A program made the translations under genes and the position numbers. A stretch of DNA of 64,000 bases from Candidatus Marinacidobacterales bacterium (GTDB lineage Bacteria > Acidobacteriota > Vicinamibacteria > Marinacidobacterales > SMYC01): positions 2,944,001 through 3,008,000 of the forward strand of contig OZ250169.1 of NCBI GenBank assembly GCA_965237955.1. The letters are read 5' to 3'. Positions within the stretch are counted from its first letter, which is position 1; each line of letters starts with the position of its first letter. Shown here piece after piece: positions 4,172 through 63,517 of the stretch. Under the pieces are notes generated by a model. The model did not search any database. It was not told where the DNA came from and saw only the letters and a program-made list of their open reading frames with translations.

Positions 4172-5599
4172 CGTCCTGTGCCAAAACTCGGCCCTTTTGA
4201 AATAGGCCATAAATCAGCAACTTAGTGTCTGTGTTTGCGGCCGGGCCAAGGGCCGTGGGCTTTACAATCGTCTTGGGCGGGTGGGTCGTCACCATGCAGG
4301 TGACCACCTAGTCGAGAGCGAATATCGAAGCGTGTTCCTGAAGCTGTTTCCACGCTACGCCGGTCGAGCCCGCCGAGGGGCCACCGTCGCCGGCGACCAT
4401 CTACGCGGCACGGTAGTAGTAGTTGAGAATGCCCCTAAGTCGCTCTCGCGACACGATGGGGCCAGCGTCATTCGCGCTTGCCGGCAGAGGTGTGAGGAGC
4501 TCGTTGCCGAGACCTTGGTGGTTCCGTTCTGTGTGATAGTGCACTACGTATTCGGTTACCGCTGTGCGCAGGTGTCGCTCACTGAGAGGTACGAAGCGGT
4601 CGAGACACTCTCGACGTATGGAGAGAACGAATCTTTCCGCATATGCGTTCAGGTTCGGACTATTAGCGGGAAGGCGAAGGGGCTTCACGCCTGAATCTCT
4701 CAACAGCCCACGTACCGCCTCGGTGAATAGCGGGTCCCGGTCGTGGATGAGGTATCGCTTGCCAAGGAGGAAACCATCCCACATGTCAGTGAGGTTTCTT
4801 GCCACCTGCTTCATCCACTCCCCGTTGGGGTCCGACGTTATCCCACCGATGCACACGCAGCGAGTGGCGATATCGATGACAAACAGGACATGGTAGCGGA
4901 CGAGCCCGAACGGGTTCACCACCTCGACGGTGAACAGGTCTGTCGCAGCGATGGCGCCCCAATGAGCCTTGATGAAGGTGCTCCACGACATGCTCTTGCC
5001 CCGCTCCGGCGCAGGCGCGATACCGTGCTCGGCGAGGATCCTCTTGATAGTGTTGCGTCCGAGTTCATGTCCTAGGTTCTTGAGTGCGCCTCGCAGGCGC
5101 GTATATCCCCACGTCGGGTTCTCCCGCGCCACGCGCACAATGAGCTCACGGATGTCCTTCGCCGTCGGAGGTCGGCCTGGACTCCGGTTCTTGCTGCCAT
5201 CGTACTTGGCTGCGATGAGGTGGCGGTACCAGCGCAGAAGCGTAGCGGGTGTGGCAACGGACGCAATCTGGGCCAGCGCCTCGCGGCCCAAAGCCTGGGC
5301 CTTGACCGCGAGCCTGCGCCGGTCGTCGTCCGAGAGCCTGAGACGCTTGCCCCGAAGCCCGGCTCGGAGCACACGGTTCTCCTCTTGCAGGTAGTCGATC
5401 ACATCCTGCTGCTGGCGGTTGACCCAGCCAGCTAGAACGAGCAGTAGGAATTGCACGTGGTACGTCATCATGGATCTGAAGATAACACCCTCGGGCCAGA
5501 CGATTGTAAAGCCTACGGCCCTTGGCCCCGGCGCAAACACAGACACTAAGCTGCTGATTTATGGCCTATTTCAAAAGGGCCGAGTTTTGGCACAGGACG
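4172..5599 (-). mobile_element. Complete IS481-like rve/DDE element with ~100-bp type A terminal inverted repeats
   Basis: CGTCCTGTGCC...CTTTACAATCGTCT inverted at 4172 and 5599, enclosing one transposase ORF; no target duplication. Confidence 0.85.
4401..5471 (-). CDS. Transposase, HTH + integrase core (rve) domain
   Basis: [30 protein letters not shown] (D-D-E), [12 protein letters not shown]. Confidence 0.9.
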
Positions 5600-12030: not shown

Positions 12031-12135
12031 CGGTTCATCGGCACGTGTATGTAGTTCAAAAATCCGTTACGCACGAAGAGTCTGGGGCTGGAAGAAGGAC
12101 TGCGCTGCCCGATCTTGTTGCCACCGGAGGCTCTG

Positions 12136-13551
12136 ATGGAAGAAGCCATTCTCTTTGACTCGGTGGCCGAGTTAGGCCGAATGTTACGCAGCCGGGAGAT
12201 CTCTCCGCTCGAGTTGACGGCTGCCTACATCGATCACGCCAAAACACTCGACCCACAACTTCTCGCGGTCGTCACGCTGACCAAGGAATTGGCCGTCCAG
12301 CAAGCACGCGCCGCGGAAGCGGAGATTATGAGTGGCCGCTACCGCGGACCGCTGCACGGAATCCCGTGGGGTGTAAAGGATCTGTTTGCCACCAACGGGA
12401 TACCGACGCAATGGGGATCGCCCGCGTTTGGCGGGCAGACGTTTGACTACGACGCCACGGTGGTGCGGAAGCTATATGACGCCGGGGCTGTGCTCATCGC
12501 GAAGCTTGCGACCGGTGAGCTGGCCTATGGCGCCAAATGGTTCCGCGGTACCACCCGGTGTCCCTGGGATACGAGTCGCTCCAGCAGTGGTTCCTCGGCG
12601 GGACCCGGTGCGGCCACGGCGGCCGGGCTGGTTGGGTTCTCGATCGGGACCGAGACCGAGGGGTCGATCATTTCGCCTGCGAGCGTCAATGGGGTCGTCG
12701 GACTGCGCCCGACCTACGGGCGCGTGAGCCGATACGGCGTAATGGTGGCCGGCTGGACGATGGACAAGCCCGGTCCCATGTGTCGCTACGTCGACGATTG
12801 CGCCACCGTGCTCCGGCACGTCATGGGAGCGGATACTCTCGACCCGACGGCGGTGGATGCTCCGTTCGAAATCCCGCCGCAAGCGGGGATCCGCGGGAAA
12901 AAGATCGGAGTCCTGCGCGACGAGTTCGACATGCCCGAGGACCCTGAGTTGAGACAGATACTCAATGCCCCTCTGGAGGTCCTGGAAAGCCTCGGGCTCG
13001 TCCTCGAAGAAACGGAGCTCAGGGATCTTCCGTACAGCGAGGTCTCACGGTTGGTCGGCATCGAAGAGGCCAGCTACTTCGAGCCCTTGATCGAGTCGCC
13101 GAGAGTCAACGAATTGCTCAGGAAGGATCACATCAACAGGTGGGCCGCTGCCCGCATGGTTCCTGCAATCGACTATGTAAAGGCGCAGAGGATTCGGGTC
13201 GAGATGATGCAGTATGCAAGCGAGTTGTTCGACCGTTATTCAGCGCTCGTGACGCCGGCCTGGATGGGGACGGCCTGGGACGCCGATGCATCGGAAACGT
13301 CCGGGGTCATCTACCGTACCCGGCGCACCGACCCCGAGGACCCCGACAGCGCTCTGCATCCGAGGATCAGTCTGTTCTCGAACCTGGTCGGCGTTCCTGC
13401 GGTTTCCGTCCCCTGCGGATTTACGAAGGGGGGGCTACCGATGGCCATCCAGTTTGTCGGTGCTGCGTTCGACGAAAGCGGGATTCTTCAACTGGCGCGT
13501 GCCTATGAACAGGCCACTACGTGGCACGAACAACATCCAGCTTTGGGTTGA
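12136..13551 (+). CDS. Amidase signature family protein (GatA-like)
   Basis: GPLHGIPWGVKD, SSGSSAG, IGTETEGSI; GGAGG before ATG 12136. Confidence 0.9.
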   Translation: MEEAILFDSVAELGRMLRSREISPLELTAAYIDHAKTLDPQLLAVVTLTKELAVQQARAAEAEIMSGRYRGPLHGIPWGVKDLFATNGIPTQWGSPAFGGQTFDYDATVVRKLYDAGAVLIAKLATGELAYGAKWFRGTTRCPWDTSRSSSGSSAGPGAATAAGLVGFSIGTETEGSIISPASVNGVVGLRPTYGRVSRYGVMVAGWTMDKPGPMCRYVDDCATVLRHVMGADTLDPTAVDAPFEIPPQAGIRGKKIGVLRDEFDMPEDPELRQILNAPLEVLESLGLVLEETELRDLPYSEVSRLVGIEEASYFEPLIESPRVNELLRKDHINRWAAARMVPAIDYVKAQRIRVEMMQYASELFDRYSALVTPAWMGTAWDADASETSGVIYRTRRTDPEDPDSALHPRISLFSNLVGVPAVSVPCGFTKGGLPMAIQFVGAAFDESGILQLARAYEQATTWHEQHPALG

Positions 13552-13842: not shown

Positions 13843-14197
13843 TGGCGCGCTGAATCGGCGCGCTCGCTCATTGGCGCGTCACGCGCCATAACGTGGCAGC
13901 GCCGTTTGCCCCGGCGATCCCGAACGCAGGCCCCCGTCCTGTGCCAAAACTCGGCCCTTTTGAAATAGACCACAAATCAGCAGTTTAGACGCCCTTGGAA
14001 TCCGCGCAGAATCGAGGGTATTTCGCGCCGCAGGGCTGACTTCCGACCCCTGGGCTGCGGGTGGCGAGCGACAGCCCACCGGTGGTGCGCACGGCTGGCT
14101 CAAATCGGCTGCGGGGCGAGCTACGGGCAGTGAACTGCGCACCCGGAAGTCCCTCATTAGACTGGACTTTATCGAGCACAAGAGCGAACGTTCGGTG

Positions 14198-14629
14198 ATG
14201 CCGCAGGATACAGGGGTTGGCCGGAACGTCGTTTTGGACGGTTTGGACTTCGCCAGCTTACGGCGGGTCTGGGAGCAGACCTTTGGGGCTGCTCCTCCAA
14301 GCTCGCTCTCGCGTGTTTTCCTGCGCCGCGTTCTCTTGCACGAACGCCAGTGCCGGACCCATGGCGGGCTTTCGGCCGCAACCCGGCGCGCTCTGGCTGC
14401 CATGGCGAACGAGACACCAAGCTCCGGCGCTCCCGCAGGGTCCGTTTCTGCCGGCACCCATCTCGTCCGCGAGTGGAATGGCCGGACCTACCAGGTCGAG
14501 GTACTCGACAACGGCTATCGGTTCGATGGCAAAACCTATCCGTCCCTCACTACCATCGCAAAGCGAATCACCGGCACCCACTGGTCAGGACCACGCTTTT
14601 TCGGTCTGACGCCCAAGCGCAAGGCCTAA
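14198..14629 (+). CDS. DUF2924 domain protein
   Basis: GTHLVREWNG..V.V...G..FDGKTYPSL..IA..ITGTHWSGPRFFGL. Confidence 0.9.
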   Translation: MPQDTGVGRNVVLDGLDFASLRRVWEQTFGAAPPSSLSRVFLRRVLLHERQCRTHGGLSAATRRALAAMANETPSSGAPAGSVSAGTHLVREWNGRTYQVEVLDNGYRFDGKTYPSLTTIAKRITGTHWSGPRFFGLTPKRKA

Positions 14630-14630
14630 C

Positions 14631-16292
14631 ATGAAGAAGATCCGCTGTGCCATCTATACGCGAAAGAGTGCGGAAGAGGGTCTCGAACAGGCGTTCAACT
14701 CCCTCGATGCGCAGCGAGAAGCCTGCGCCGCGTATGTCGCGAGCCAGAAAGCGGAGGGCTGGGTGCTGCTGCCAACCGTCTACGAGGACGCGGGGCTCTC
14801 GGGAGGAACCCTGGAGCGCCTGGGCCTGCAGCGCTTGCTCGCCGACATCGACGCAGGTCTCGTCGACCAGATCGTGGTCTACAAGGTCGACCGGCTGACC
14901 CGTTCCCTCTCCGACTTTGCAAAGCTCGTCGAGCGGCTCGAGGCGGCCGGCGCGGTTTTCGTCTCGGTGACTCAGTCCTTCAACACCGCGACCAGCATGG
15001 GACGACTGACGCTGCATATGCTGCTGTCCTTCGCACAATTCGAACGCGAGGTCACGGCCGAGCGGATCCGCGATAAGGTCGCTGCCTCCAAGCGCAAGGG
15101 ACTATGGATGGGCGGCCGCGTACCGCTAGGCTATGAGAAGGACGGGCGCACGCTGCGCATCAACGAGGCTGAGGCCGAAACGGTCCGGACGCTCTATGCG
15201 CTGTACCGGAAGCACGGAACGCTCCGGCAGGTGAAGGCCGAGGCGGACCGTCTGAGGCTGCGCACCAAGCGACGCTTCGCCGCGGATGGAACCCGGACAG
15301 GCGGGTTGCCGTTCCGTCGCGGACACCTCCACTGCCTGCTGACCAATCCTCTCTACGCCGGCCGTATCCGGCACCAGAGGCGTGTCTACGAGGGCCAGCA
15401 TCCATCGATCATTGCTCCGGAGCTCTGGGACGCGGTCCAGGCGCAGCTGCAGGCAGGGGCTGCCAAACCAAGGAGACGCACGACGAAGGGCCGCGCAGCC
15501 CCCTCCCCGCTGGCAGGCAAGCTCTTCGACGAGACCGGGGACCGGCTGACGCCGAGCCACACCAAAAAGAAAAACGGGCAACGGCTCCGCTACTACGTCT
15601 CCCGGCGCCTCATCCAGCACAGTGGCCAAAAGGACCTCTCCGGCTGGCGGCTGCCCGCCCCGATGCTGGAACAGACCGTCGTGCATCTCATCCGACAGCA
15701 TGTGGATGCCACGACCTTCTCGGCCTCGTTGATCCACACTCCGACGATGCAAGAGCTCACCTCGGTGCGTCGCTTTTTAGACGGGCTGTGTTCCGGTAGT
15801 AATGATGATAGTGCCTCGGCAGTCCCCCTGCTCCGTCTTATCCGGCGGGTCGATATCAGCTCCGGCTCTGTGTCCATCCTGCTCGACCGCAATGCGTTCG
15901 CTGCTTGCCTGTCTATGGGGCCCGACCGCATTCGCGAGGATGCACTCCGCATCCTCGCACCGTTCCGCTTGCGTCGACGCGGCGTCGAGACCAAGCTCGT
16001 TCTGGGCAACCCCACGAAATCCGTCGACCGCACACTCCTGCGCAATATCGCCAACGCCCTCTCCTGGCTCAACCGAATCAAAGCAGGCAAAACCTATGAG
16101 CAGATTGCCACCGAAAACGCCATCCCAACGGACCGCGTGCGCAAGGCAATCCGTTATGCCTTCCTGGCTCCCGACATCGTCCGCGCCATTGTCGAAGGCC
16201 GCCAGCCCGTTGGGCTGACCTCGAGCTACCTCTTGCATCATCCGCTTCCCGACGATTGGGAGAAACAGCGAGTGCTCGTCAAAACGCTGTGA
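14631..16292 (+). CDS. Large serine recombinase (resolvase + recombinase domains), complete copy
   Basis: AIYTRKS catalytic Ser, VYKVDRLTRS, FAQFERE, LTNPLYAG, GQHPSII. Confidence 0.92.
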   Translation: MKKIRCAIYTRKSAEEGLEQAFNSLDAQREACAAYVASQKAEGWVLLPTVYEDAGLSGGTLERLGLQRLLADIDAGLVDQIVVYKVDRLTRSLSDFAKLVERLEAAGAVFVSVTQSFNTATSMGRLTLHMLLSFAQFEREVTAERIRDKVAASKRKGLWMGGRVPLGYEKDGRTLRINEAEAETVRTLYALYRKHGTLRQVKAEADRLRLRTKRRFAADGTRTGGLPFRRGHLHCLLTNPLYAGRIRHQRRVYEGQHPSIIAPELWDAVQAQLQAGAAKPRRRTTKGRAAPSPLAGKLFDETGDRLTPSHTKKKNGQRLRYYVSRRLIQHSGQKDLSGWRLPAPMLEQTVVHLIRQHVDATTFSASLIHTPTMQELTSVRRFLDGLCSGSNDDSASAVPLLRLIRRVDISSGSVSILLDRNAFAACLSMGPDRIREDALRILAPFRLRRRGVETKLVLGNPTKSVDRTLLRNIANALSWLNRIKAGKTYEQIATENAIPTDRVRKAIRYAFLAPDIVRAIVEGRQPVGLTSSYLLHHPLPDDWEKQRVLVKTL

Positions 16293-16824
16293 GCCTGCCA
16301 GCGCCCACTTCGTGAATGGCCTCGGTTAGCAGCAAGCTGCTCTCCGACACTGGCCTCCACCAATCAGCCTCAACCTGGCCCAAATTCCCTGTCATGGTTT
16401 CCAGACTCGGATAGCTCCTTGTACTGGACCGTCTGCGGAGTCATCTTCGTTTCCTCCGTAAAACTCCGCTGGATGAATTCGAGGTTTGGCCAATTCGAAT
16501 TTCGCTATTCGCCTTCTCCTCAGGCGCGATCTACGCGTAGAGCGTCTTCTCTTTGTCTGCGCGATTAAGCGCAAAAACGTCCCGATAAGCCCCAAAATCG
16601 CCCCAAATTGCACACTAAGGGCCTGTTTTGCTCTGTTTCTGATCGTTTCCAGCCAAGAATCGGAAGATCCACTCGAGCCTCCCGACTGCCCTGTGCCAAA
16701 ACTCGACCCATTTGAAATAGGCCATAAATCAGCAGCTTAGTGTCTATGGTGCGCTCCCGTGAACGGCTTGGCGGGTTGCTACGTTTCTACCATAGGGAAG
16801 CCGCATGAGTATTTTGACCTTACG

Positions 16825-16897
16825 GGCACTCCCACAGGAAACGGGGAGAAACAGATAGGCCGCGCCTACGGAGCACCGTGCCAGCCCTCGACCCTAC
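16825..16897 (+). ncRNA. Group II intron domain VI fragment
   Basis: Nearly identical to 55744-55816; ends ...CCAGCCCTCGACCCTAC. Confidence 0.8.
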
Positions 16898-17754
16898 CGC
16901 GATGGAGCCTGACCAGAAGCCTGCTGGGCCGGACAGTTCCCCCGCTGATGCCCAGGGTGCCGACTATAATAGTGATGAAGGAGCCTCATCGGTGGGCCTT
17001 TTATCGGCCCGGTCGCAAACACAGACACTAAGCTGCTGATTTATGGTCTATTTCGAAAGGGTCGAGTTTTGGCACAGGACGGGGTTCGAGCCCGTCGTGA
17101 ACCCGCCATGCTGGGCATCAGATACGGCGGTCAGCCTCAACTTGACAATGCCCTACTTATTCCGTTTCTTTGCCAAACTTTTAATGAATTTACGGATGTT
17201 GTGCTCCGTGAGAGTGCCTCTCCGATACTTGGCATGTCGACCAGACATCAGACGACGCCTGCAACAACGCATCGGTTTAGTAGGCGGCAGGGACTACTGA
17301 AGATGGAGCGCGTCCCACCATTCAACCCACAGCAGCTTGAGGCCATCGCGAAGATCCTGGCTGACACCTCTACGGGGCTTACGGGCTCCCAGATCGCCTA
17401 TTTACTTCAGGACGCGAGGATTTCAGACGTATCACCTCAAATGACGAAATGGAAGCGGCTCTTCAACGCCTTAGTCGAGCGTCAGAACGAGCAACAGCTT
17501 GGAAACCATGTGCTGATGTTTGTTAACCGGGCGATGAACCCTGTCAACTACACCGGATCGCTCGAAGTCTTTACGTCGCGTCAATCTCAGCTCAACTCAG
17601 TGCTGGCTGTTCCGCTTCAGCGGAAATGAGACTTTCTGCAAGTGACGGGTTCTCTCCCCTGCCTGGGTGAACTGCCATGGTATCGCCACCGGGAGGATAG
17701 GGCACTGCTGGGAAGCAACCCGAGCGCCCGGTGGCCGGAATACGGTTGGCATTA

Positions 17755-19870: not shown

Positions 19871-21299
19871 CGTCCTGTGCCAAAACTCGGCCCTTTTGAA
19901 ATAGGCCATAAATCAGCAACTTAGTGTCTGTGTTTGCGACCGGGCCAAGGGCCGTGGGCTTTACAATCGTCTTGGGCGGGCGGGTCGTCACCATGCAGAT
20001 GACCACCTAGTCGAGAGCGAATATCGAAGCGTGTTCCTGAAGCGGTTTCCACGCTACGCCGGTCGAGCCCGCCGAGGGGCTACCGTCGCCGGCGACCATC
20101 TACGCGGCACGGCAGTAGTAGTTGAGAATGCCCCCAAGTCGCTCTCGCGACACGATGGGGCCAGCGTCATTTGCGCTTGCCGGCAGAGGTGTGAGGAGCT
20201 CGTTGCCGAGACCTTGGTGGTTCCGTTCTGTGTGATAGTGCACTACGTATTCGGTTACCGCTGTCCGCAGGTGTCGCTCACTGAGAGGTACGAAGCGGTC
20301 GAGACACTCTCGACGTATGGAGAGAACGAATCTTTCCGCATATGCGTTCAGATTCGGACTATTCGCGGGAAGGCGCAGGGGCTTCACGCCTGAATCTCTC
20401 AACAGCCCACGTACCGCCTCGGTGAATAGCGGGTCCCGGTCGTGGATGAGGTATCGCTTGCCAAGGAGGAAACCATCCCACATGTCAGTGAGGTTTCTTG
20501 CCACCTGCTTCATCCACTCCCCGTTGGGGTCCGACGTTATCCCACCGATGCACACGCAGCGAGTGGCGATATCGATGACAAACAGGACATGGTAGCGGAC
20601 GAGCCCGAACGGGTTCACAAACCTCGACGGTGAACAGGTCTGTCGCAGCGATGGCGCCCCAATGAGCCTTGATGAAGGTGCTCCACGACATGCTCTTGCC
20701 CCGCTCCGGGGCAGGCGCGATACCGTGCTCGGCGAGGATCCTCTTGATAGTGTTGCGTCCGAGTTCATGTCCTAGGTTCTTGAGTGCGCCTCGCAGGCGC
20801 GTATATCCCCACGTCGGGTTCTCCCGCGCCACGCGCACAATGAGCTCACGGATGTCCTTCGCCGTCGGAGGTCGGCCTGGGCTCCGGTTCTTGCTGCCAT
20901 CGTACTTGGCTGCGATGAGGCAGCGGTACCAACGCAGAAGCGTAGCGGGTGTGGCAACGGACGCAATCTGGGCCAGCGCCTCGCGGCCCAAAGCCTGGGC
21001 CTTGACGGCGAGCCTGCGCCGCTCGTCGTCCGAGAGCCTGAGACGCTTGCCCCGAAGCCCGGCTCGGAGCACACGGTTCTCCTCTTGCTGGTAGTCGATC
21101 ACATCCTGCTGCTGGCGGTTGACCCAGCCAGCTAGAACGAGCAGTAGGAATTGCACGTGGTACGTCATCATGGACCTGAAGATAACACCCTCGGGCCAGA
21201 CGATTGTAAAGCCTGCGGCCCTTGGTCCGGTCGCAAACACAGACACTAAGCTGCTGATTTATGGTCTATTTCAAAAGGGCCGAGTTTTGGCACAGGACG
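19871..21299 (-). mobile_element. Second full A-type rve element; transposase (20100-21171) frameshifted near 20620
   Basis: Near-identical to 4172-5599 with a 1-nt insertion (TTCACAAACC vs TTCACCACC). Confidence 0.88.
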
Positions 21300-21440: not shown

Positions 21441-23969
21441 ATGAACGAAGCGACCGCTCGGATCAAGATCAACAAACTGCTCGAAGCCGCCGGCTGGCGC
21501 TTCTTCGGCGATGGAGACTCGCCTGCCAATATTTGCCTTGAACCCAATGTCACGATCAGAACGTCCGATCTCGACGCCCTGGGCAACGACTTCGAGAAAA
21601 CATCCAAAGGCTACATCGACTTCTTGCTTTTGGACACTAAGGGATTTCCCTACATCGTCCTGGAAGCCAAATCGGAGGACAAGAACCCGCTCGTCGGCAA
21701 GGAGCAGGCCCGCAAATACGCCCGCTCCCAGAATTGCCGCTTCGTCATCCTGTCGAACGGCAACCTGCATTACTTCTGGGATCTAGAACGCGGCAACCCC
21801 TACGTCATCACCTCCTTCCCGACGCCGGAATCTGTATCCGGCTACCGGAAGGTCGCGCCCAACCCGCAGCGCCTGATCGGGGAACAGGTCGGCGAAGACT
21901 TCATCGTTCTCACCCAACGGCCGAATTATGCCTCTGAAGCTGCGTGGAAGAATGAAGCTGAGCGCCCCGGCTTCATTCAGGCCAACAAATTGCGCTTTCT
22001 GCGTGTCTATCAGCTCAGAGCGATCCATGCGTTGCAGCGGGCGGTACAGGACGGAGGCGATCGCTTCTTGTTCGAGATGGCGACAGGCACTGGCAAGACG
22101 CTCACCGCTGCCGCCGTCATCAAGCTGTTCCTCCGCTCGGGCAATGCCAGCCGAGTGCTCTTCCTGGTCGACCGGCTGGAATTGGAAGATCAGGCGCATA
22201 AGGTCTTCGCCACATTGCTTTCAGCGGACTTCCAGACGGTTGTCTATAAAGAGAACCGTGATGACTGGCATCGCGCCGAGATCGTCGTCACCACTGTTCA
22301 ATCCCTACTGTTCAACAACAAGTATCAGCGGCTCTTCTCGCCCACGGACTTCGATCTTGTAATTTCCGACGAGGCACATCGCTCGATCGGCGGTAACGCC
22401 CGCGCAGTGTTCGACTTCTTCGTGGGCTACAAGCTCGGGTTGACCGCGACGCCCCGTGACTATTTGAAGGGTACCAGCAAGACCGGCACTGCGGTGCATG
22501 ACCCACGTGAAACCGAACGGCGCCTCCTTCTCGACACCTATCGCACCTTTGGCTGCGAGAGCGGGCAACCCACCTTCCGCTACTCGCTACTCGATGGTGT
22601 GAAAGACGGATTCCTGCTCAACCCGACCGTGGTCGACGCTCGTACCGATGTGACCACCCAACTCCTATCCGAAGAGGGGTTTGTCGTCTCGTTCATCGAC
22701 GAGACGGGTGAAGACCTGGAGGAAGCCTACAAGCAACGCGAGTTCGAAAAGAGCTTTTACTCTGAGGCCACCAACCAGCTTTTCTGCAAAACCTTCCTTG
22801 AGAACGCGCTGCGTGACCCGATCAGCGGCGAGATCGGGAAGTCCATCGTCTTTGCTGTCAGCCAGAACCACGCAGCCAAGCTCGCGCAGATCTTCAACCA
22901 GATCGCTGACCGGATGTTTCCTGGCAAGTACCGGTCAGACTTCGGCGTGCAGGTAACCTCGCAGATCGCAGATGCGCAGAAGTTCACCATCAACTTCGCC
23001 AACAACAACCTGCTGGGCTCGGCCAACTTCCGTCCCGGCTACCGGACCAGCAAGGCTCGGGTCTGCGTCACGGCGGGCATGATGACCACCGGCTACAACT
23101 GCACCGATATTCTGAATATTGGCCTGTTCCGTCCCATCTTCTCGCCCACCGATTTCGTCCAGATCAAGGGACGCGGCACCCGTAGGCACGACTTCCGGGA
23201 TGACATTCTTGATGACAGCCTCAAGGACAGCGTCGCCGAGGCGCAGAAGACTGCATTCAAGCTCTTCGATTTCTTCGGCAACTGCGAGTATTTTGAGACC
23301 GAGTTCAACTACGACGAAGAGCTGAAGCTGACTCGGCCTCAAACGAGTAGCGGCGGGGCCGACATCGAACCGGTTCAGTTCGCTGGCTCTTACGAACACC
23401 CCGGGGCCGACATCATTGTCTCTGTACATGAAGAGACCATCGATTACGAAGGGATGAAGATTGACCGGATGCTCTTCGAGAAGTTCGGGGACACCGTGCG
23501 CCAAGACGAGACGATCGCCGATGCAGTGATGGCGGGCCAGTGGGATCGCGTAATCGATTACGTCAACCGAGAGGTCTTTGACAAGCCCGAAGAATACTAC
23601 ACCCTCAAGAAGCTGCGCCAAGCTGCCGCCGTGGACCGCCGCCTCACCTTGCGCGAAATTCTGGAGAAGGTCTTCGGCCTCATTCCCGATTTCAAATCTA
23701 AGGATGAGTTATTGGAAGAGGAGTTTGCGAAGTTCGTAGCCGATTGCAAGCCCGACGAGGCCAACGCCATCCAGGCCATCAAGACCTACTTCAAAGCCTA
23801 TGCCACCAGCAACCAAGTACGCGACATCATCGATGGCAAACGATTCGCCGAGCTCGCTACCAACCCGTCCTTTTCCACCGGCGACTTCAGCGCTGTGCCG
23901 GACAAGTACCGTAACCTCATTCCGGAATACGTCAAGGACTACGTTTCCTTGAACCAGTTCGCCCCGTAG
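21441..23969 (+). CDS. hsdR: Type I restriction enzyme R subunit-like DEAH helicase/nuclease
   Basis: YIDF...VLEAK nuclease motif, MATGTGKT, DEAHRS, GLTATP, QIKGRGTR. Confidence 0.85.
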   Translation: MNEATARIKINKLLEAAGWRFFGDGDSPANICLEPNVTIRTSDLDALGNDFEKTSKGYIDFLLLDTKGFPYIVLEAKSEDKNPLVGKEQARKYARSQNCRFVILSNGNLHYFWDLERGNPYVITSFPTPESVSGYRKVAPNPQRLIGEQVGEDFIVLTQRPNYASEAAWKNEAERPGFIQANKLRFLRVYQLRAIHALQRAVQDGGDRFLFEMATGTGKTLTAAAVIKLFLRSGNASRVLFLVDRLELEDQAHKVFATLLSADFQTVVYKENRDDWHRAEIVVTTVQSLLFNNKYQRLFSPTDFDLVISDEAHRSIGGNARAVFDFFVGYKLGLTATPRDYLKGTSKTGTAVHDPRETERRLLLDTYRTFGCESGQPTFRYSLLDGVKDGFLLNPTVVDARTDVTTQLLSEEGFVVSFIDETGEDLEEAYKQREFEKSFYSEATNQLFCKTFLENALRDPISGEIGKSIVFAVSQNHAAKLAQIFNQIADRMFPGKYRSDFGVQVTSQIADAQKFTINFANNNLLGSANFRPGYRTSKARVCVTAGMMTTGYNCTDILNIGLFRPIFSPTDFVQIKGRGTRRHDFRDDILDDSLKDSVAEAQKTAFKLFDFFGNCEYFETEFNYDEELKLTRPQTSSGGADIEPVQFAGSYEHPGADIIVSVHEETIDYEGMKIDRMLFEKFGDTVRQDETIADAVMAGQWDRVIDYVNREVFDKPEEYYTLKKLRQAAAVDRRLTLREILEKVFGLIPDFKSKDELLEEEFAKFVADCKPDEANAIQAIKTYFKAYATSNQVRDIIDGKRFAELATNPSFSTGDFSAVPDKYRNLIPEYVKDYVSLNQFAP

Positions 23970-23978
23970 AAACCTACC

Positions 23979-26447
23979 ATGCTGGATTCCAACACCAAGC
24001 GCCGCATCGACACCGCCCGAGACATCCTGGTCGGCAAGGTTCCGGACCCTAAGAGCCAGGTCGAGCAGATCACCATCGCGCTGATCTACAAGTTCATGGA
24101 CGACATGGACGCCGAGAGCGAGGAGTTCGGCGGGAAGCGCAGCTTCTTCGCCGACGAGTTCGCCCGCTATGGATGGGCCAAGCTGATGCGCGCCGGCCTC
24201 GGCGGCCATGAGACCTTGAACCTCTACGCCGAGGCCATCACCAAGATGCCTGAGAATCCCGGCATTCCACCTTTATTTCGCGATATCTTCAACAACGCCT
24301 ACCTGCCATATCGCGATCCGGAGACCCTTCGCGCCTTTCTAAAAATCATCGACGCGTTCACGTACGACCACTCCGAGCGCCTAGGTGACGCCTTCGAGTA
24401 TCTGCTCTCGGTCCTCGGCTCGCAGGGGGACGCCGGGCAGTTCCGCACCCCGCGCCATATCATTGACTTCATCGTCGCCATCATCGAGCCGAAGAAGGGC
24501 GAAACGGTGCTGGACCCCGCGTGTGGTACCGCCGGATTTCTGATCTCATCCTACAAGCACATCCTTGCCGCCAACACTGACCCGCAAGGCGTCAGCACGC
24601 TGACGCCGGATGACAAGGAGCGGCTAGCGGCGAACTTCAAAGGCTACGACATCTCGCCCGACATGGTGCGCCTGTCTTTGGTGAACATGTACCTGCACGG
24701 CTTTGCTGCCCCGCCTATCTTCGAGTACGACACGCTGACCAGCGAGGAGCGGTGGAACGAGTATGCGGACGTAATTCTGGCGAAGAACCCTCCGTTCATG
24801 TCTCCGAAGGGTGGTATACGGCCGCACAACCGGTTCTCAGTGCAATCCAAGCGGAGTGAGGTGCTGTTCGTGGACTACATGGCCGAGCACCTGACGCCCT
24901 CTGGCCGCGCCGGCATCATCGTGCCCGAGGGAATCATCTTCCAGAGCCAGAACGCCTACAAACAGCTTCGTAAGATGCTGGTAGAGGAATACTTGGTTGC
25001 TGTCGTTTCTTTGCCGGCTGGTGTGTTCAATCCCTATTCGGGCGTCAAGACGTCGATTCTCATCCTCGACAAGTCGCTTGCGAAGAAGACGGATCGTATC
25101 GCCTTCTTGAAGATCGAAAACGACGGTTTCGGTCTGGGCGCTCAGCGGCGCCCCATTGACAAAAATGACATACCGCAGATCCAGACCGAGATTGGCAAGT
25201 ACCTGCAATGGCTGCAAGCGGGGATACCACTAGACGGCTTCCGGCCTGCGCTCGGCCTTTTCGTACCGAAGGAAAAGATCGGCGCGAACGAGGAGTACAA
25301 CCTCAGTGGAGAGCGATATCGGGAAGAAGTAGTGCAATCAAAGCACTTTCCTTGGAGAACGGTGGAATCGCTCGTCGAGACAATCACTCCTCCATTCAAG
25401 ATCCAGAAAGCTGCTTTCGGAAGCAGCGGACGATTTCCCATCATCGATCAATCTCAAGATGCTATCGCAGGCTGGACGGATGATGAGTCCACATTGGTTC
25501 ACCCCACCAAACCGTTGGTTATCTTCGGCGATCACACGTGCGCACTTAAACTGATAGATGCGCCATTCGCACAGGGAGCAGACGGCATTAAAATCTTGCA
25601 AACCGTAGACGCGCTCGACCCACTTTTCCTCTTCCGCGTTCTCCGTGCCAGACCCCTCGAGAGTAGTGGTTATCAGAGGCATTACTCAAAGCTCAGAGAA
25701 CATCAAATCCCTCTGCCGCCGTTGGAGGTACAGAAGGAGATCGTCGCCGAGATCGAGGGTTACCAGAAGGTCATCGACGGTGCCCGCGCCGTCGTCGACC
25801 ATTATAGGCCGCACATTGCCGTAGACCCTGAATGGCCGTTGGTCCCCATTAAAGAGGTGGCGGCGGTTGAGAGTGGCTTCGGCTTCCCGATAGATCGTCA
25901 GGGCCAGAATGATGAGGGGATTCCGTTTCTGAAGGTCAGCGACATGAACCTCCCAGGGAATGAAGTGCGCATCGTGTCATGGAACAATTCTGTCTCACGC
26001 GAAGTCCTGCTCGAGTTGAAGGCAAAGGCGTTTCCCACAGGAACCGTAATCTTTCCGAAGATTGGTGCAGCTATCGCGACGAACAAGAAGCGCATCCTGA
26101 CAAGGGAGTCGACCTACGACAACAACGTAATGGGCATCGTCTCTGACCGCGCCCGTCTCGTGCCTGAATACTTACACACCTATCTTCTTGGCTTCAATCT
26201 TTCACGATGGGCAAGTGACGCGCAGCCACCGTCAATGCGAAAGACGGCGGTGGAAGCCCATGATATTCCCCTCCCGCTCCTCATCATACAGCAAGCCATC
26301 GTAGCTGAGTTCGAAGCCGAGCAGGCGTTGGTCAACGCCAACCGCGAGCTGATTGCCCGCTTCGAGAAGAAGATCAGCGCTGCCATCGGGCGAGTATGGG
26401 GCGAAGCTGAACCCGTCCTGTGCCAAAACTCGGCCCTTTTGAAATAG
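23979..26447 (+). CDS. N6-adenine methyltransferase fused to specificity subunit (HsdM-HsdS); last 10 aa supplied by an A end
   Basis: GQFRTPRH, DPACGTAGFL, NPPF, then two TRDs with IPLPPLEVQKEIV and IPLPLLIIQQAIV. Confidence 0.88.
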   Translation: MLDSNTKRRIDTARDILVGKVPDPKSQVEQITIALIYKFMDDMDAESEEFGGKRSFFADEFARYGWAKLMRAGLGGHETLNLYAEAITKMPENPGIPPLFRDIFNNAYLPYRDPETLRAFLKIIDAFTYDHSERLGDAFEYLLSVLGSQGDAGQFRTPRHIIDFIVAIIEPKKGETVLDPACGTAGFLISSYKHILAANTDPQGVSTLTPDDKERLAANFKGYDISPDMVRLSLVNMYLHGFAAPPIFEYDTLTSEERWNEYADVILAKNPPFMSPKGGIRPHNRFSVQSKRSEVLFVDYMAEHLTPSGRAGIIVPEGIIFQSQNAYKQLRKMLVEEYLVAVVSLPAGVFNPYSGVKTSILILDKSLAKKTDRIAFLKIENDGFGLGAQRRPIDKNDIPQIQTEIGKYLQWLQAGIPLDGFRPALGLFVPKEKIGANEEYNLSGERYREEVVQSKHFPWRTVESLVETITPPFKIQKAAFGSSGRFPIIDQSQDAIAGWTDDESTLVHPTKPLVIFGDHTCALKLIDAPFAQGADGIKILQTVDALDPLFLFRVLRARPLESSGYQRHYSKLREHQIPLPPLEVQKEIVAEIEGYQKVIDGARAVVDHYRPHIAVDPEWPLVPIKEVAAVESGFGFPIDRQGQNDEGIPFLKVSDMNLPGNEVRIVSWNNSVSREVLLELKAKAFPTGTVIFPKIGAAIATNKKRILTRESTYDNNVMGIVSDRARLVPEYLHTYLLGFNLSRWASDAQPPSMRKTAVEAHDIPLPLLIIQQAIVAEFEAEQALVNANRELIARFEKKISAAIGRVWGEAEPVLCQNSALLK

Positions 26448-26796
26448 ACCATAAATCAGCAGCTTAGTGTCTGTGTTTGCGACCGGGCCAAGGGCCGTAG
26501 GCTTTACAATCGTCTGGCCCGAGGGCGGAGGGCGTCCTGTGCCAAAACTCGGCCCTTTTGAAATAGACCACAAATCAGCAGCTTAGACGCCCTTGGAATC
26601 CGCGCAGAATCGAGGGTATTTCGCGCCGCAGGGCTGGCTTCCGACCCCAGAGCAGCGGGTGGCGAGCGACAGGCCCACCGGGGGTGCGCACGGCTGGCTC
26701 AAATCGGCTGCGGGGCGAGCTACGGGCAGTGAACTTCGCACTCGGAAGTCCCTCATTAGACTGGACTTTATCGAGCACAAGAGCGAACGTTCGGGG

Positions 26797-27094
26797 ATGC
26801 CGCAGGATACAGGGGTTGGCCGGAACGTCGGTTTGGACGGTTTGGACTTCGCCAGCTTACGGCGGGTCTGGGAGCAGACCTTTGGGGCTGCTCCTCCAAG
26901 CTCGCTCTCGCGTGTTTTCCTGCGCCGCGTTCTTGCGTACGAACGCCAGTGCCGGACCCTTGGCTGGCATTCGGCCACAACCCGGCGCGCTCTGGCTGCC
27001 ATGGCGAACGGGACGCCAGGCAACGGCGCCGCCGCTCCCGCAGGGTCCGTTTCTGCCGGCACCCATCTCGTCCGTGAGTGGAATGGCCGGACCT
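26797..27094 (+). pseudogene. DUF2924 copy truncated by an A end
   Basis: Similarity to 14198-14490, ending at ...GGACCT. Confidence 0.85.
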
Positions 27095-29027: not shown

Positions 29028-30059
29028 CTAAGCGGCCATCGGCGACTGGAATTCACTCTCGCGGGTGGAGACGGCCCAGACGATCCGGGCGAGTTTGTTG
29101 GCGACAGCAATCACGGCCTTGTTGTGTCCCCGCGAGCGGTGGACCTTCCGAGCCCAGGCGCGGAGCTTGTCGGGCGGGCTCTTACTGACGTTCGCCGCGC
29201 GGAGCACGGCGCGCCCGCCCTGGGTGAGGAGCATACGGAGGTAGGAGTCGCCACGCTTGGTGATGCGTCCGAGGCGGCGAATGTCGCCACTGGAGTTTTC
29301 CTTGGGAACTAGGCCGAGGTAGCTCGAGAAGCGGCGCCCCGATGGGAAGCGGCGAAGATCGCCGACGAAGCCCACGATGGCGGTCGCGGTCAGAAGTCCG
29401 ATGCCGGGAATGGCGAGAAGTCGTTGGACTTCAGGAAGCTGCTTGGTGAGCGCCTTGAGCTCGTGCTCGATGCCAGCGCACTTGTCCTTGAGTTCTCGAA
29501 TCTCGGAGCAGGCATCACGGAGATGCGAACGGAGCACGTCGGGCAAATCAGAATCAGCGTCTTCGACGAGTTCGAAGAGGGCGGGCACGACGAAGTGAGC
29601 GCCCTTTGGGATGATGAATCCGAGTTCGCGCAGGATCCCGCGTACGGCATTGATGCGTGCGGTCCGTGTGGAGAGCCATCCTGAGCGCAGGCGATGGAGC
29701 GCGGCGAGGCTGTGCTGGTGCACGGACTTAATGGGCACGGGAAGAATCTCCTCGTTCCTGTAGGCCTCGAGCAACGCTTTGGCGTCGGCGCGGTCGTTCT
29801 TGCTCCCGCGTCGATAGGGCCTCACGAGGTGAGGTGGGAGCAGGACGACGTCGTGTCCCAACCTTCGGAACGTCCTTGCCCAGAAGTGAGCAGAGCCGCA
29901 GGCTTCGAGAAGCACGGTGGCAGCGCTCTGTTTGGCAAAAAACGACACCAACTTGGGTCGACTCACACGGAGTTGCTTGGACACCTTCCCCGCTTCTCCC
30001 GAGATGGCAATCTCGAAGACGTTCTTTGCAAGATCCACAGCGATCGTCGTATCTTTCAT
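29028..30059 (-). CDS. IS110 family DEDD transposase/recombinase
   Basis: AVDLAK, LLEAC, KNDRADA, IPGIG, YLGLVP..NSSG, ITKRGD.YLR. Confidence 0.93.
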   Translation of the reverse strand: MKDTTIAVDLAKNVFEIAISGEAGKVSKQLRVSRPKLVSFFAKQSAATVLLEACGSAHFWARTFRRLGHDVVLLPPHLVRPYRRGSKNDRADAKALLEAYRNEEILPVPIKSVHQHSLAALHRLRSGWLSTRTARINAVRGILRELGFIIPKGAHFVVPALFELVEDADSDLPDVLRSHLRDACSEIRELKDKCAGIEHELKALTKQLPEVQRLLAIPGIGLLTATAIVGFVGDLRRFPSGRRFSSYLGLVPKENSSGDIRRLGRITKRGDSYLRMLLTQGGRAVLRAANVSKSPPDKLRAWARKVHRSRGHNKAVIAVANKLARIVWAVSTRESEFQSPMAA

Positions 30060-30187
30060 TCGGACTCCTCCTTTTCGATGCGTATTCGACTGACTTTGGC
30101 ACATCGATGCCGTCTATGTCAGCGGAGGAGTCCATTCCATCACTTGATGGCGGAAGCACTTGATGGCGGAAGCACCGAATAGAGTCC

Positions 30188-31671
30188 ATGCCGACGGCAA
30201 GAACCAGCGAGAGCCACCCACTGCGCATCACGGCGATGACCCTGGGCGACGGCCGTGGCCGGATCGGCTTCTCGCAGTGCCCCGGTAGGATCGATCACTA
30301 CGCAATATCCGGGCCCTGGAAGCGGGATCTCGACACCGACCTCGACGCGATTCAGCGCTGGGGAGCGACTGCGGTGGTCAGCCTGATCACCCACGAAGAG
30401 ATCCCCGATCTGAAGGTGCACGATCTCCCGAGGGCGGTTCGAGACCGGCACATGGAGTGGTGGCATGCCCCGATTCCCGACGGAGAGGCACCGGAACAGG
30501 ACTTCGAGCACGCCTGGAAGGCCACCGGCGAGTCCATCCGGAACCGGCTGCGGCTCGGCTTCGACGTGCTGCTCCACTGCCGGGGTGGTCTGGGACGCGC
30601 CGGGACCATCACAGCCCGCCTGCTGGTGGAGTTGGGCGTGCAACCGGACGATGCGATCCGCCGCGTGCGCGACGCCCGCGAATGGACCATCGAGAACGGC
30701 TCCCAGCTGGCTCACGTGAGGCAGTGTTCGGCACAAGCACCATCGGTTCCATCCCGGAGACCGCGGACGACATCCACGACCGGGCGCTCGGGGCCTTCCT
30801 CGGTCTGGCGGTGGGCGACGCGGTCGGCACGACGCTCGAATTCTGCTCCCGCGATACGCAGCCGCGTCTAGAAGACATGGTCGGTGGCGGCCCGTTCGAT
30901 CTGCCGGCCGGCGCTTGGACCGACGACACGGCCATGGCGCTGGCCCTTGCCGACAGCCTGGCGGAATCCAAGACGCTCGACTGCCGGGACCTGATGGACC
31001 GTTTCGTGAAGTGGTGGCGAGACGGAGACTACTCGTGGAGCGGAGACTGCTTCGACATCGGAAACACGACCTGCCAAGCGCTCACCCGGTACCTACGGAC
31101 GGGTGACCCGGTCGCGGGTTCGACCGATCCCTTGAGCGCAGGCAACGGCTCGCTGATGCGGCTCGCCCCCGTTGCGCTCCGGTTCAGGCACGACCGGCCG
31201 CGCCTGATCGCAGCAGCCGCCGACCAGTCCCGGACGACCCACGGAGCCGAGGAAGCAGTGGACGCCTGCCGGGCGTTCGGCGAGCTCCTAGCGGACGCCA
31301 TCGCCGGGTCACCGTTCTCGGACGTTCTGGCTCCGAGACGGTTCACGGGAGCGGCGGCAATCACTCAGGTCATAGCCGGCAGCTGGCGAGGACGGACACG
31401 GGATACGATCCGCTCCAGCGGGTACGTCGTTCACACGCTCGAAGCCGCCATCTGGTCAGTCGCCCGCACCGGAGACTTCCGCAGCGCGGTGCTGCTCGCG
31501 GCCAACCTGGCCGACGACGCCGATACGGTAGCAGCAGTGACGGGGCAGCTCGCCGGCGCCCTCTACGGCCTGAACGCCATCCCCGACCACTGGCGGGAAC
31601 GCGTTGCCTGGAAGGATCGACTCCTGGCAGCGGCGCGGCGGTTGCTGTCGGAACCCCTTGCCGACCGGTAG
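30188..31671 (+). pseudogene. Dual-specificity phosphatase (CDKN3-like) fused to ADP-ribosylglycohydrolase; one frameshift near 30750
   Basis: HCRGGLGRAG in the first frame; GLAVGDA, WTDDT, GNGSLMR, DADT in the second. Confidence 0.85.
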
Positions 31672-32167: not shown

Positions 32168-32679
32168 CAGACAGAACATCCTCATGCGCGCGATCGTAGT
32201 CCCTATTAACTCCTCTGTTAGAATAGTTTAGGGGAGACGGCCCGAGGGTAAGCGGAACTAAGGAAACGAGTGCAAAGGCGATCGTCGAGTAAATGGCCTC
32301 GGCCGGCAGACCGGAGACTAATCAAGTTCGGTGCGCGCGGATGAATAAATAGAAGGCACAACCCGCATTACTCAGTGGTCTGGGAAAGCCCCGGGCCGCG
32401 GCTCCACCCCTACCCGGGGGCGTCCACAAAACTCGGCCCTTTTGAAATAGACCACAAATCAGCAGTTTAGACGCCCTTGGAATCCGCGCAGAATCGAGGG
32501 TATTTCGCGCCGCAGGGCTGACTTCCGACCCCTGGGCTGCGGGTGGCGAGCGACAGCCCACCGGTGGTGCGCACGGCTGGCTCAAATCGGCTGCGGGGCG
32601 AGCTACGGCCAGTGAACTGCGCACCCGGAAGTCCCTCATTAGACTGGACTTTATCGAGCAGAAGAGCGAACGTTCGGTG

Positions 32680-33111
32680 ATGCCGCAGGATACAGGGGTT
32701 GGCCGGAACGTCGTTTTGGACGGTTTGGACTTCGCCAGCTTACAGCGGGTCTGGGAGCAGACCTTTGGGGCTGCTCCTCCAAGCTCGCTCTCGCGTGTTT
32801 TCCTGCGCCGCGTTCTCTTGCACGAACGCCAGTGCCGGACCCATGGCGGGCTTTCGGCCGCAACCCGGCGCGCTCTGGCTGCCATGGCGAACGAGACACC
32901 AAGCTCCGGCGCTCCCGCAGGGTCCGTTTCTGCCGGCACCCATCTCGTCCGCGAGTGGAATGGCCGGACCTACCAGGTCGAGGTACTCGACAACGGCTAT
33001 CGGTTCGATGGCAAAACCTATCCGTCCCTCACTACCATCGCAAAGCGAATCACCGGCACCCACTGGTCTGGACCACGCTTTTTCGGTCTGACGCCCAAGC
33101 GCAAGGCCTAA
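32680..33111 (+). CDS. DUF2924 domain protein
   Basis: Near-identical to 14198-14629. Confidence 0.88.
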   Translation: MPQDTGVGRNVVLDGLDFASLQRVWEQTFGAAPPSSLSRVFLRRVLLHERQCRTHGGLSAATRRALAAMANETPSSGAPAGSVSAGTHLVREWNGRTYQVEVLDNGYRFDGKTYPSLTTIAKRITGTHWSGPRFFGLTPKRKA

Positions 33112-33112
33112 C

Positions 33113-34126
33113 ATGAAGAAGATCCGCTGTGCCATCTATACGCGAAAGAGTGCGGAAGAGGGTCTCGAACAGGCGTTCAACTCCCTCGATGCGCAGCGAG
33201 AAGCCTGCGCCGCGTATGTCGCGAGCCAGAAAGCGGAGGGCTGGGTGCTGCTGCCAACCGTCTACGAGGACGCGGGGCTCTCGGGAGGAACCCTGGAGCG
33301 CCTGGGCCTGCAGCGCTTGCTCGCCGACATCGACGCAGGTCTCGTCGACCAGATCGTGGTCTACAAGGTCGACCGGCTGACCCGTTCCCTCTCCGACTTT
33401 GCAAAGCTCGTCGAGCGGCTCGAGGCGGCCGGCTCGGTTTTCGTCTCGGTGACTCAGTCCTTCAACACCGCGACCAGCATGGGACGACTGACGCTGCATA
33501 TGCTGCTGTCCTTCGCACAATTCGAACGCGAGGTCACGGCCGAGCGGATCCGCGATAAGGTCGCTGCCTCCAAGCGCAAGGGACTATGGATGGGCGGCCG
33601 CGTACCGCTCGGCTATGAGAAGGACGAGCGCACGCTGCGCATCAACGAGGCTGAGGCCAAAACGGTCCAGACGCTCTATGCGCTGTACCGGAAGCACGGA
33701 ACGCTCCGGCAGGTGAAGGCCGAGGCGGACCGTCTGAGGCTGCGCACCAAGCGACGCTTCGCCGCGGATGGAACCCGGACAGGCGGGTTGCCGTTCCGTC
33801 GCGGACACCTCCACTGCCTGCTGACCAATCCTCTCTACGCCGGCCGTATCCGGCACCAGAGGCGTGTCTACGAGGGCCAGCATCCATCGATCATTGCTCC
33901 GGAGCTCTGGGACGCGGTCCAGGCGCAGCTGCAGGCAGGGGCTGCCAAACCAAGGAGACGCACGACGAAGGGCCGCGCAGCCCCCTCCCCGCTGGCAGGC
34001 AAGCTCTTCGACGAGACCGGGGACCGGCTGACGCCGAGCCACACCAAAAAGAAAAACGGGCAACGGCTCCGCTACTACGTCTCCCGGCGCCTCATCCCGT
34101 CCTGTGCCAAAACTCGGCCCTTTTGA
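33113..34126 (+). pseudogene. Large serine recombinase truncated by the A end at 34098
   Basis: Near-identical to 14631-15615, then PSCAKTRPF* from the repeat. Confidence 0.88.
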
Positions 34127-39393: not shown

Positions 39394-39730
39394 AGCAGGT
39401 CTTCCCGTGTTGGACAGCCCAGCAATGGTTTGTTTGGGCAGGGGTCCTGAGTCCTCTCCTGAATCCCGTCCTGTGCCAAAACTCGGCCCTTTTGAAATAG
39501 ACCACAAATCAGCAGCTTAGACGCCCTTGGAATCCGCGCAGAATCGAGGGTATTTCGCGCCGCAGGGCTGGCTTCCGACCCCAGAGCTGCGGGTGGCGAG
39601 CGACAGGCCCACCGGGGGTGCGCACGGCTGGCTCAAATCGGCTGCGGGGCGAGCTACGGGCAGCGGACTGCGCACCCGGAAGTCCCTCATTAGACTGGAC
39701 TTTATCGAGCACAAGAGCGAACGTTCGGGG

Positions 39731-41288: not shown

Positions 41289-41412
41289 CGCACTCGCTGG
41301 TATGATCCCCGAGGCGATAGGGGACATCCTTGCGCACGTCAGTGCGTTAACGTCGAACCTCGCTGTCATCTTCACGCTGAACCAAAACACTATGAGGGAA
41401 GGAGATATTTCA

Positions 41413-49109: not shown

Positions 49110-49177
49110 ACCACAAATCAGCAGCTTAGACGCCCTTGGAATCCGCCGACCCTTGGGCTGCGTGGCGAGCTACGGGC

Positions 49178-63516: not shown

Positions 63517-63517
63517 C

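Follow-up and report, generated by a model that had tools for sequence, protein, structure and literature searches.

Which DNA sites are recombined by a large serine recombinase (LSR) whose gene is repeatedly found next to the end of an insertion sequence (IS)? This question is raised by a 64,000-nucleotide stretch of a Candidatus Marinacidobacterales genome (contig OZ250169.1 of assembly GCA_965237955.1), referred to here as the window, which corresponds to G000:C1:2944001-3008000, G000 being the source genome. On its + strand, a 56-bp sequence (13935-13990) is followed by a 207-bp leader (13991-14197), a DUF2924 gene encoding 143 residues from its ATG (14198-14629; PF11149, E 2e-39) and an LSR gene encoding 553 residues with Resolvase and Recombinase domains (14631-16292). 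The 56 bp represent the start of a terminal inverted repeat of type A, termed here the A end; A end, leader, DUF2924 and LSR together are termed the module. An initial annotation had described the module as amplified and tied to the A end on its left, which our analysis supports, and had proposed that it is either a non-autonomous A-ended transposon carrying a resolvase-like helper or that the LSR itself acts on A ends. Here, our comparisons indicate that DUF2924-LSR is probably a tRNA-Ser integrase module, which uses an attachment (att) site of its own rather than the A ends and was captured by the ends of an IS481-like IS.

A ends form the terminal inverted repeats of an IS481-like IS encoding an rve transposase and of the miniature inverted-repeat transposable elements (MITEs) derived from it; they are not the site of the LSR. 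The window holds an autonomous A-ended IS of 1428 bp with its rve transposase (4172-5599, minus strand; stop at 4401) and a second copy with a frameshifted transposase (19871-21299, minus strand). IS481 family members have ends that begin with TGT and generate a short target duplication. The rve transposase matched the IS481 profile NF033577 best among three IS matches, at 101.8 bits against a cut-off of 224, and the A-end tips carry five additional fixed bases before the TGT (CGTnn before TGT). Similar terminal repeats bound sister rve ISs within the source genome (53-62% amino-acid identity), and sister ISs at 53-65% end in CGTnnTGT-type repeats both there and in other phyla. According to record titles, relatives with like ends occur in Planctomycetota, Myxococcota, Deltaproteobacteria, Actinomycetes and other Acidobacteriota, and many loci of the A-ended IS itself are assigned to Candidatus Marinacidobacterales; among distant rve relatives, both ends could be located in 12 of the 20 loci examined. 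Eight of ten genomes with sister rve ISs contained no LSR match at E<=1e-20 (genome completeness not given), and the other two carry LSR relatives of 44-48% without A ends. A more distant rve family (about 30% identity, TGT ends; G000:C1:217237-875473) was also observed in 19 copies, with no obvious target duplication in the flanks inspected.

How the A ends join their targets further distinguishes them from the IS481 definition. Empty sites of A ends read GAC-CC-(C/A)GT, and the two bases adjoining the A end matched those of the target in 164 of 186 cases and in 75 of 80 well-supported ones; in the other five of these 80 a single base differs, and four of the five read CC. When oriented by the end, the junctions were one-sided (CC 360 and GG 25 of 487). 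Short target duplications were absent from all 122 adjacent inward-facing pairs of A ends, from 12 distant relatives and from 40 copies in related genomes, and an exact-match search returned no empty site whose two halves had both been joined with an offset of less than 10. A candidate duplication of about 25 bp was rejected, as none was found in cis and its offsets (-21 to -28) correspond to short segments between two outward ends. Three blocks have both ends in one target, and show an 869-bp duplication, an 88-bp duplication and a 3-bp loss (around 27095-60182). These variable footprints (+3, -88 and -869 bp) suggest that the two IS ends join independently, and we infer that each A end attacks its own motif separately. 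A first search for reciprocal scars of such one-ended events was too noisy, and a second returned 48 candidates, 19 of which share 2-5 bases at the joint. Adjacent deletions following insertion are a known cause of missing duplications (PMC11708052) and may contribute here. The A ends may also be targets themselves: many of them genome-wide are cut at shared positions (about 23, 34-36, 40, 44 and 56) by the ends of other repeats, which suggests that other ISs target A ends.

A different kind of site emerged from the relatives of the LSR. In a set of 80 homologous loci from metagenomes (48-72% identity), DUF2924 lies upstream of the LSR in 78, and none of the 80 carries A ends. A convergent tRNA 3′ end was found in 33 of the 43 loci with at least 380 bp behind the full C-terminus; the targets are mostly tRNA-Gln, and also tRNA-Ser, -Met, -Lys and -Glu, with several switches of target in an LSR tree (quick version only). 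LSRs of this family occupy tRNA sites without any rve. In one related genome (G009), a relative of 50-53% identity is found in two places, one at tRNA-Ser and the other at a junction that has the final six bases of the tRNA in common, and the source genome's P-CCGCCA-P′ sequence (arms P and P′ around a CCGCCA core) resembles two junction forms beside this tRNA-Ser LSR. The absence of A ends from the homologous loci, the tRNA 3′ ends found there and the sister ISs that lack an LSR in 8 of 10 genomes speak against the proposal that the LSR acts on A sites; the lack of A ends in homologues is also the comparative outcome that the initial annotation had named as refuting it. The accompanying idea, that two joined A ends form an attP-like palindrome, also failed, since any inverted pair of ends gives such a palindrome and a search of the whole source genome for head-to-head A-A junctions with spacers of 0-6 bp found none. 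Two further candidate LSR sites were discarded: a 52-bp core through which the module would have inserted into an A end, as the A stretch at 16690 is present only in the flagged copy, and a breakpoint at leader position ~217, which is a hot spot of sister IS ends plus one MITE fusion. The leader contains hot spots for the joining of further IS ends.

In the source genome, P-core was found 770-875 bp past the LSR stop in 19 of 31 LSR 3′ ends, and altogether 35 P-core-P′ sites and 8 P-core sites followed by an A end were identified. The tRNA-Ser(TGA) gene (126836-126921) runs into P′ at its end, 126921; P′ is also fused to a non-tRNA core at 2369656, and at 2014191 P-core continues into other, chromosome-like DNA; all three sites are located at edges of A-end clusters. 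The P′-tRNA-Ser joints and the single-site joints of P to chromosome-like DNA display the pattern of attL and attR, and an attL at a tRNA end, together with attR/attP-like junctions sharing its last bases, is one of the features that define a tRNA-targeting integrative element. The first A-end cluster begins 530 bp past the tRNA-Ser fusion and contains 20 P/P′ junctions, all on the + strand and 5-143 kb apart over 750 kb; an LSR tail precedes 6 of them, and the P arms of the other 14 come from contexts without an LSR. Altogether, the A-end clusters contain tens of P/P′ junctions. Exactly at the core, one P′ sequence is joined to four or more P contexts unrelated to one another, to three tRNA-Ser types and to one non-tRNA site. 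A ends also join three bases beyond the CCGCCA core, where the sequence fits the GAC-CC-(C/A)GT-like motif, and these joints are therefore not LSR crossovers.

Related genomes displayed the same arrangement. Among 61 of them, 10 genomes from two families contain the LSR at 95-97% identity, the rve at 97-99% and many A ends (29-511), and P/P′ sites (2-41) occur in exactly these 10, apart from one lone match in G010. As LSR, rve and A ends share the same 10 genomes, co-occurrence in close relatives, a check put forward with the initial annotation, cannot separate the two enzymes; the separation came from distant genomes, where rve-type ends occur without the LSR. Of the 10 carrier genomes, 8 have a tRNA-Ser gene fused to P′, the types involved being TGA, CGA and a third one, and in several genomes the arrays begin at the tRNA fusion; at four other pattern matches, unrelated DNA follows the tRNA. 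G021 holds a 2.6-kb unit that is complete from attL to attR and has A ends but no LSR, in G025 P-core continues into other DNA, and empty tRNA-Ser sites were found in G017, G019 and G025. Pairing the attR-like site at 2014191 with the tRNA-Ser attL was tried, since the G017 gene behind tRNA-Ser is similar to the one beyond this site, and rejected, as that G017 gene matches other paralogues better and the next G017 orthologues lie at 1.32 Mb. At G021:C2:1433941 and G013:C1:2104678, the tRNA-Ser 3′ end is followed by an apparent A-end start, at the same hot spot as in internal att sites. Beyond these genomes, sponge metagenome runs contain the module, metagenome contigs from other samples join P to P′, and the LSR is covered in three metatranscriptome runs of two studies, which is not proof of transcription. 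A plasmid collection contained LSR relatives at 43-52% only and rve relatives under 40% only.

The LSR has an N-terminal serine catalytic domain with an intact nucleophile, followed by a Recombinase domain. PF00239 and PF07508 matched above cut-off, the catalytic motif YTRKS is intact, R11-K12-S13 is invariant in 41 sequences, and profile matches included the TP901-1, A118, SPbeta and phiC31 integrases. No zinc-ribbon Pfam domain and no DUF4368 matched; the zinc-ribbon region reads FDETG...YYVS and is cysteine-free in the family consensus. The predicted structure combines a cysteine-less zinc-ribbon-like region, a short helical pair and an extra C-terminal helical domain, and lacks the combination of four-cysteine zinc ribbon and coiled coil. 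The best NCBIfam match was CcrB, at 123 bits against a cut-off of 900. Sequence variation among the LSR copies shows purifying selection, with an omega of about 0.3, and this is strongest in the catalytic and Recombinase domains. In 16 full copies, the ratio of nonsynonymous to synonymous polymorphism (pN/pS) was 0.28, and 0.14 in the catalytic domain, while 63 nonsynonymous and 73 synonymous variants, against a neutral expectation of 2.7:1 derived from fourfold sites, gave an omega of 0.32 (0.26 for rve and 0.56 for DUF2924).

DUF2924 is a predicted partner of the LSR. A model of the DUF2924-LSR complex scored 0.71, compared with 0.00 for the best of 3 controls, and placed the contact at LSR residues 465-543; runs agreed in at least 63% of contacts, and the partner's predicted local distance difference test (pLDDT) was at least 69. 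The mark used for such scores is reached by 116 of 157 solved pairs and 2 of 215 mismatched pairs, a calibration that holds only roughly here because our own 41-row alignments were used. The model supports binding of DUF2924 to the LSR C-terminus, and DUF2924 most likely controls the direction or activity of the LSR. Known recombination directionality factors (RDFs) were modeled on the second DNA-binding domain near the coiled coil (PMC12286644), unlike the predicted position of DUF2924. The DUF2924 fold had no Foldseek match at E<=0.001, and its best VIA match, a small helical domain (Z 6.3 over 48 residues, root-mean-square deviation 2.4), is within the range of common arrangements; profile comparison revealed no likeness between DUF2924 and the LSR. 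In the available main text, DUF2924 is absent from both the RDF pulldown paper (PMC12286644) and an LSR survey (PMC10083194), and the latter does not mention tRNA. A literature search that covered few subscription journals returned, for DUF2924 with a recombinase, only single mentions in Wolbachia papers and nothing on this arrangement.

Taken together, these findings suggest a course of events. Circles carrying P-core-P′ would integrate at the tRNA-Ser end through an LSR crossover within CCGCCA, and repeated integration would stack units of 5-140 kb, so that every seam reads P/P′; units without an LSR could be served in trans. Acting on one A end at a time, the rve transposase would join it to a target resembling GAC-CC-(C/A)GT; cargo on both flanks of the LSR-att core could thereby be loaded, swapped or deleted, and the core itself copied further, while inversions may later have scattered the array. 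Integrase and IS together likely built the repeat-rich islands that fill about a quarter of the genome. More tentatively, and as a less probable reading, we put forward a broader "load and land" scheme, in which footprint-free rve joining would load cargo around a DUF2924-LSR-attP core and the LSR would land circles at tRNA-Ser and at earlier seams; it would have spread at 95-97% identity through at least six genera and two families of sponge-associated Acidobacteriota, giving rise to megabase arrays (~23% of the genome), with DUF2924 as a new class of cofactor docking on a dedicated C-terminal domain.

Several observations weigh against an LSR acting on its own tRNA-Ser att site. Its nearest homologues target tRNA-Gln and not Ser, albeit with a weakly supported tree position, and they face the tRNA through P′, whereas the LSR of the source genome lies behind P, such that the att site could have been inherited from a relative of the LSR that has since been lost. 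Two unrelated, single-copy LSRs of ~700 residues from another family are also present (G000:C1:320336-321220 and 5446479-5447369), although it speaks for the LSR that no other member of its family exists in the source genome. The attR-like site could not be linked to the attL by gene order, and a pattern search found no tRNA-Ser/P′ fusion in G023 and G025. The orientation of the junctions is not decisive, as the rve matches of the first cluster show a strand bias too (24 to 3). An underpowered linkage test across the core found P and P′ unlinked (r about 0), as are some blocks within P′. No clear dyad was found in the att consensus (best 12 of 25, away from the core), and contigs of other samples contained neither an excision circle nor an empty site of this strain. 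Variants among the copies may predate amplification, and selection therefore need not act on each copy. Some of these points would fit a reading, which we regard as unlikely, in which the LSR genes and the att sites of a lost or inactive integrase were multiplied as A-ended composite cargo and by repeat recombination, the P/P′ junctions being mere copies. It would account for the A-LSR-att-A blocks of 3.4-3.8 kb, the invariable A end on the left, the orientation bias shared with rve, the tRNA-Gln preference of LSR kin and the 14 of 31 LSR 3′ ends that are not part of a full-length gene. It sits poorly with the purifying selection on the LSR domains, with the exact joining of P′ at the core to such diverse partners and with arrays that start at a tRNA fusion.

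The resolvase-like helper of the initial annotation is likewise unlikely, and we consider its specific form very improbable, namely that the LSR resolves rve-made cointegrates or dimers through two P-core-P′ copies and that tRNA integration is incidental. LSR, rve and A ends do share the same 10 of 61 genomes, and the many directly repeated att sites would permit deletions between them, but most A-ended units (23 IS copies and the MITEs) have no att site, sister ISs persist without an LSR, and LSRs of the family are found at tRNAs without any rve. Recombination of A ends with GAC-CC-NGT targets by the LSR itself, with CC serving as a 2-bp core, is extremely improbable. Junctions without duplication that retain the target's bases are compatible with it, and the five one-base mismatches, four reading CC, are what a 2-bp overhang with carry-over might give; however, LSR insertion would yield CC and GG junctions in equal numbers instead of the observed excess, no A-A junction exists, the same end type and flank bias recur in LSR-free genomes, homologous LSRs have no A ends, and A ends join past the CCGCCA core and not inside it. 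A tRNA-Ser integrase module captured by IS ends therefore remains our preferred explanation, and the individual copies can be described in its terms.

The flagged copy at 13935 indeed contains no transposase and retains both genes intact (14198-16292), as initially described; it is, however, neither complete nor closed by its own A end. Its non-coding tail extends for only the first 397 bp (16293-16689, + strand), being severed upstream of the att site, and is fused at 16689 to an A-ended MITE of ~392 bp (16690-17081) that lacks its left tip at the fusion, so the "closing" A end at 17081 is the MITE's end. This MITE has five other members of 391-395 bp. Among 28 tail-end copies, 25 run into common further sequence, two are offset variants, and only the flagged copy is MITE-fused, from which we infer a derivative that kept both genes and lost the att site. 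Directly after the LSR stop, at about 16382-16418, a degenerate P-arm-like stretch with spacer motifs like those of tRNA-Gln homologues was observed, possibly a relic of the LSR's former att site.

The other copies in the window are on the + strand. The starts of A end, leader and DUF2924 at 13935, 26533, 39467 and 62820 were confirmed, as were the leader remnants at 49076 and 58103 and the internal piece at 60183; a copy reported at 32421 is a real one, although its match begins at 32427 with a damaged A tip. The segments at 26533-27094 and 60183-60410 are the 5′ half and the 3′ half (with the first LSR codons) of a single DUF2924 copy, parted by a 33-kb A-ended block (27095-60182) at the cost of three target bases and without duplication. 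In the copy at 32427-34097 an A end at 34098 truncates the LSR near codon 328, and the copy at 39467-40204 is truncated early in the LSR. A end plus leader remain at 49076-49146 and at 58103-58216, where another A end cuts in at 58217. The canonical copy at 62820-64000 continues beyond the window with a full LSR and then a P-CCGCCA arm at G000:C1:3010038, with an A end in place of P′. A tRNA search of the window found none, and an Rfam search found one group II intron piece (RF02003, 54941-55077).

Genome-wide, we identified 506 A ends (0 matches with a reversed-pattern control), 88 leader matches, 32 full DUF2924 genes and 17 full-length, stop-free LSR genes. DUF2924 and LSR copies share 95-100% identity, and the module copies are real paralogues at 95-97%, as had been stated. 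Of the 122 inward-facing pairs, 23 are the 1428-bp rve IS and 15, 5 and 5 are MITEs of ~317, 393 and 134 bp. These MITEs have fixed end pairs and fixed cargo, whereas the module has an A end as left boundary in all copies and variable right ends, and is therefore probably no discrete A-to-A transposon; what stands of the transposon proposal is that the module rides on non-autonomous rve IS ends. In a module variant (L017 and L018, in G033 and G023), an end of the sister IS family closes the module 145 bp past the LSR stop, which makes the ends of different IS families interchangeable. The A ends are concentrated in eight clusters spanning ~1.9 of 8.1 Mb (about 23%), with repeat contents of 0.42-0.69, compared with 0.06-0.15 in intervening core blocks and 0.30 and 0.38 in two flanking blocks.

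Further genes accompany these IS ends. A type I restriction-modification pair (HsdR-like, and a fused N6-methylase and specificity domain) lies between A ends at 21441-26447 of the window, and an IS110 transposase above the NCBIfam cut-off (29028-30104) has 16 full intact copies in the genome. Single metabolic cargo genes lie between IS ends at 12115-13551, 30457-31671, 37924-39393, 41203-42960, 50485-51969, 53360-54730 and 60433-61686; the products encoded at these seven loci comprise amidase, ADP-ribosylglycohydrolase, M28 and M4 peptidases, sulfatase, sodium/glutamate symporter and mechanosensitive channel. Two A-end clusters share an identical tRNA-Glu-like gene without a CCA end (G000:C1:421050-421123 and 2884722-2884795).

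For a widespread but uncharacterised integrase family, whose sites the initial annotation described as poorly defined, the putative system would supply a predicted cofactor and a defined att pair, namely the tRNA-Ser end and the P-core-P′ site with its 35 copies; natural variation among dozens of att copies reveals tolerated bases. The clusters offer a candidate mechanism of genome expansion in these bacteria, and independently joining IS ends would be relevant to the loss of duplications by ISs and to the genome rearrangements that they cause. The LSR or its sites may already be listed in LSR-survey supplements or subscription journals, beyond the scope of our search.

Comparison with known systems revealed likeness to ssrA islands, SCC/ECC and tycheposons, and by the criteria tested the module is a member of none. 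Dehalococcoides ssrA islands (DsiB; McMurdie et al. 2011, PMC3146451) similarly use a CcrB-like serine recombinase of ~540-550 residues and are stacked in tandem behind a single RNA gene, whose end is repeated at the boundaries of every island; some of the islands have no integration genes. Their target is the tmRNA T-loop and their arrays are under 100 kb, whereas here the CCA end of tRNA-Ser is used, arrays reach ~0.8-1 Mb, and one LSR occurs in 17 near-identical intact copies with IS-end fusion and a DUF2924 partner. The staphylococcal cassette chromosomes (SCC/SCCmec) and Enterococcus ECC (CcrAB) are also LSR-driven cassettes at a fixed site with variable cargo and several attR per array (PMC6222049); here, the single LSR with DUF2924 is far under the CcrB cut-off (123 vs 900 bits), the target is a tRNA and not rlmH, and att sites number in the tens, as opposed to fewer than five per ECC genome. 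In tycheposons, islands anchored at tRNAs likewise grow through elements that carry an integrase, in some cases an LSR, and tRNA-Ser(TGA) is among the targets, but they use mostly tyrosine integrases and ~40-bp partial tRNA repeats (Hackl et al., bioRxiv 10.1101/2020.12.28.424599), whereas here the shared core measures 6-7 bp, the DUF2924-LSR module showed no replication genes and loading would fall to the IS ends. With the IS481 family (NF033577), the A-ended IS shares a single open reading frame for an rve/DDE transposase, long inverted ends and MITE derivatives; it differs in its score below cut-off (102 vs 224 bits), CGTnn before TGT, the lack of a short duplication and one 3-bp deletion. 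The two long target repeats (88 and 869 bp) recall the long variable duplications of IS1549/IS1634 (PMC2266710), which belong to a different transposase family. Multi-targeting LSRs and TndX-like serine transposases also place a serine recombinase in many mobile-unit copies (Durrant et al., PMC10083194), while here DUF4368 is lacking, one att sequence is conserved, the target is tRNA-Ser and dispersal is tied to IS ends. The coupling of an integrase module to IS ends, and the scale it reaches, appear to be new.

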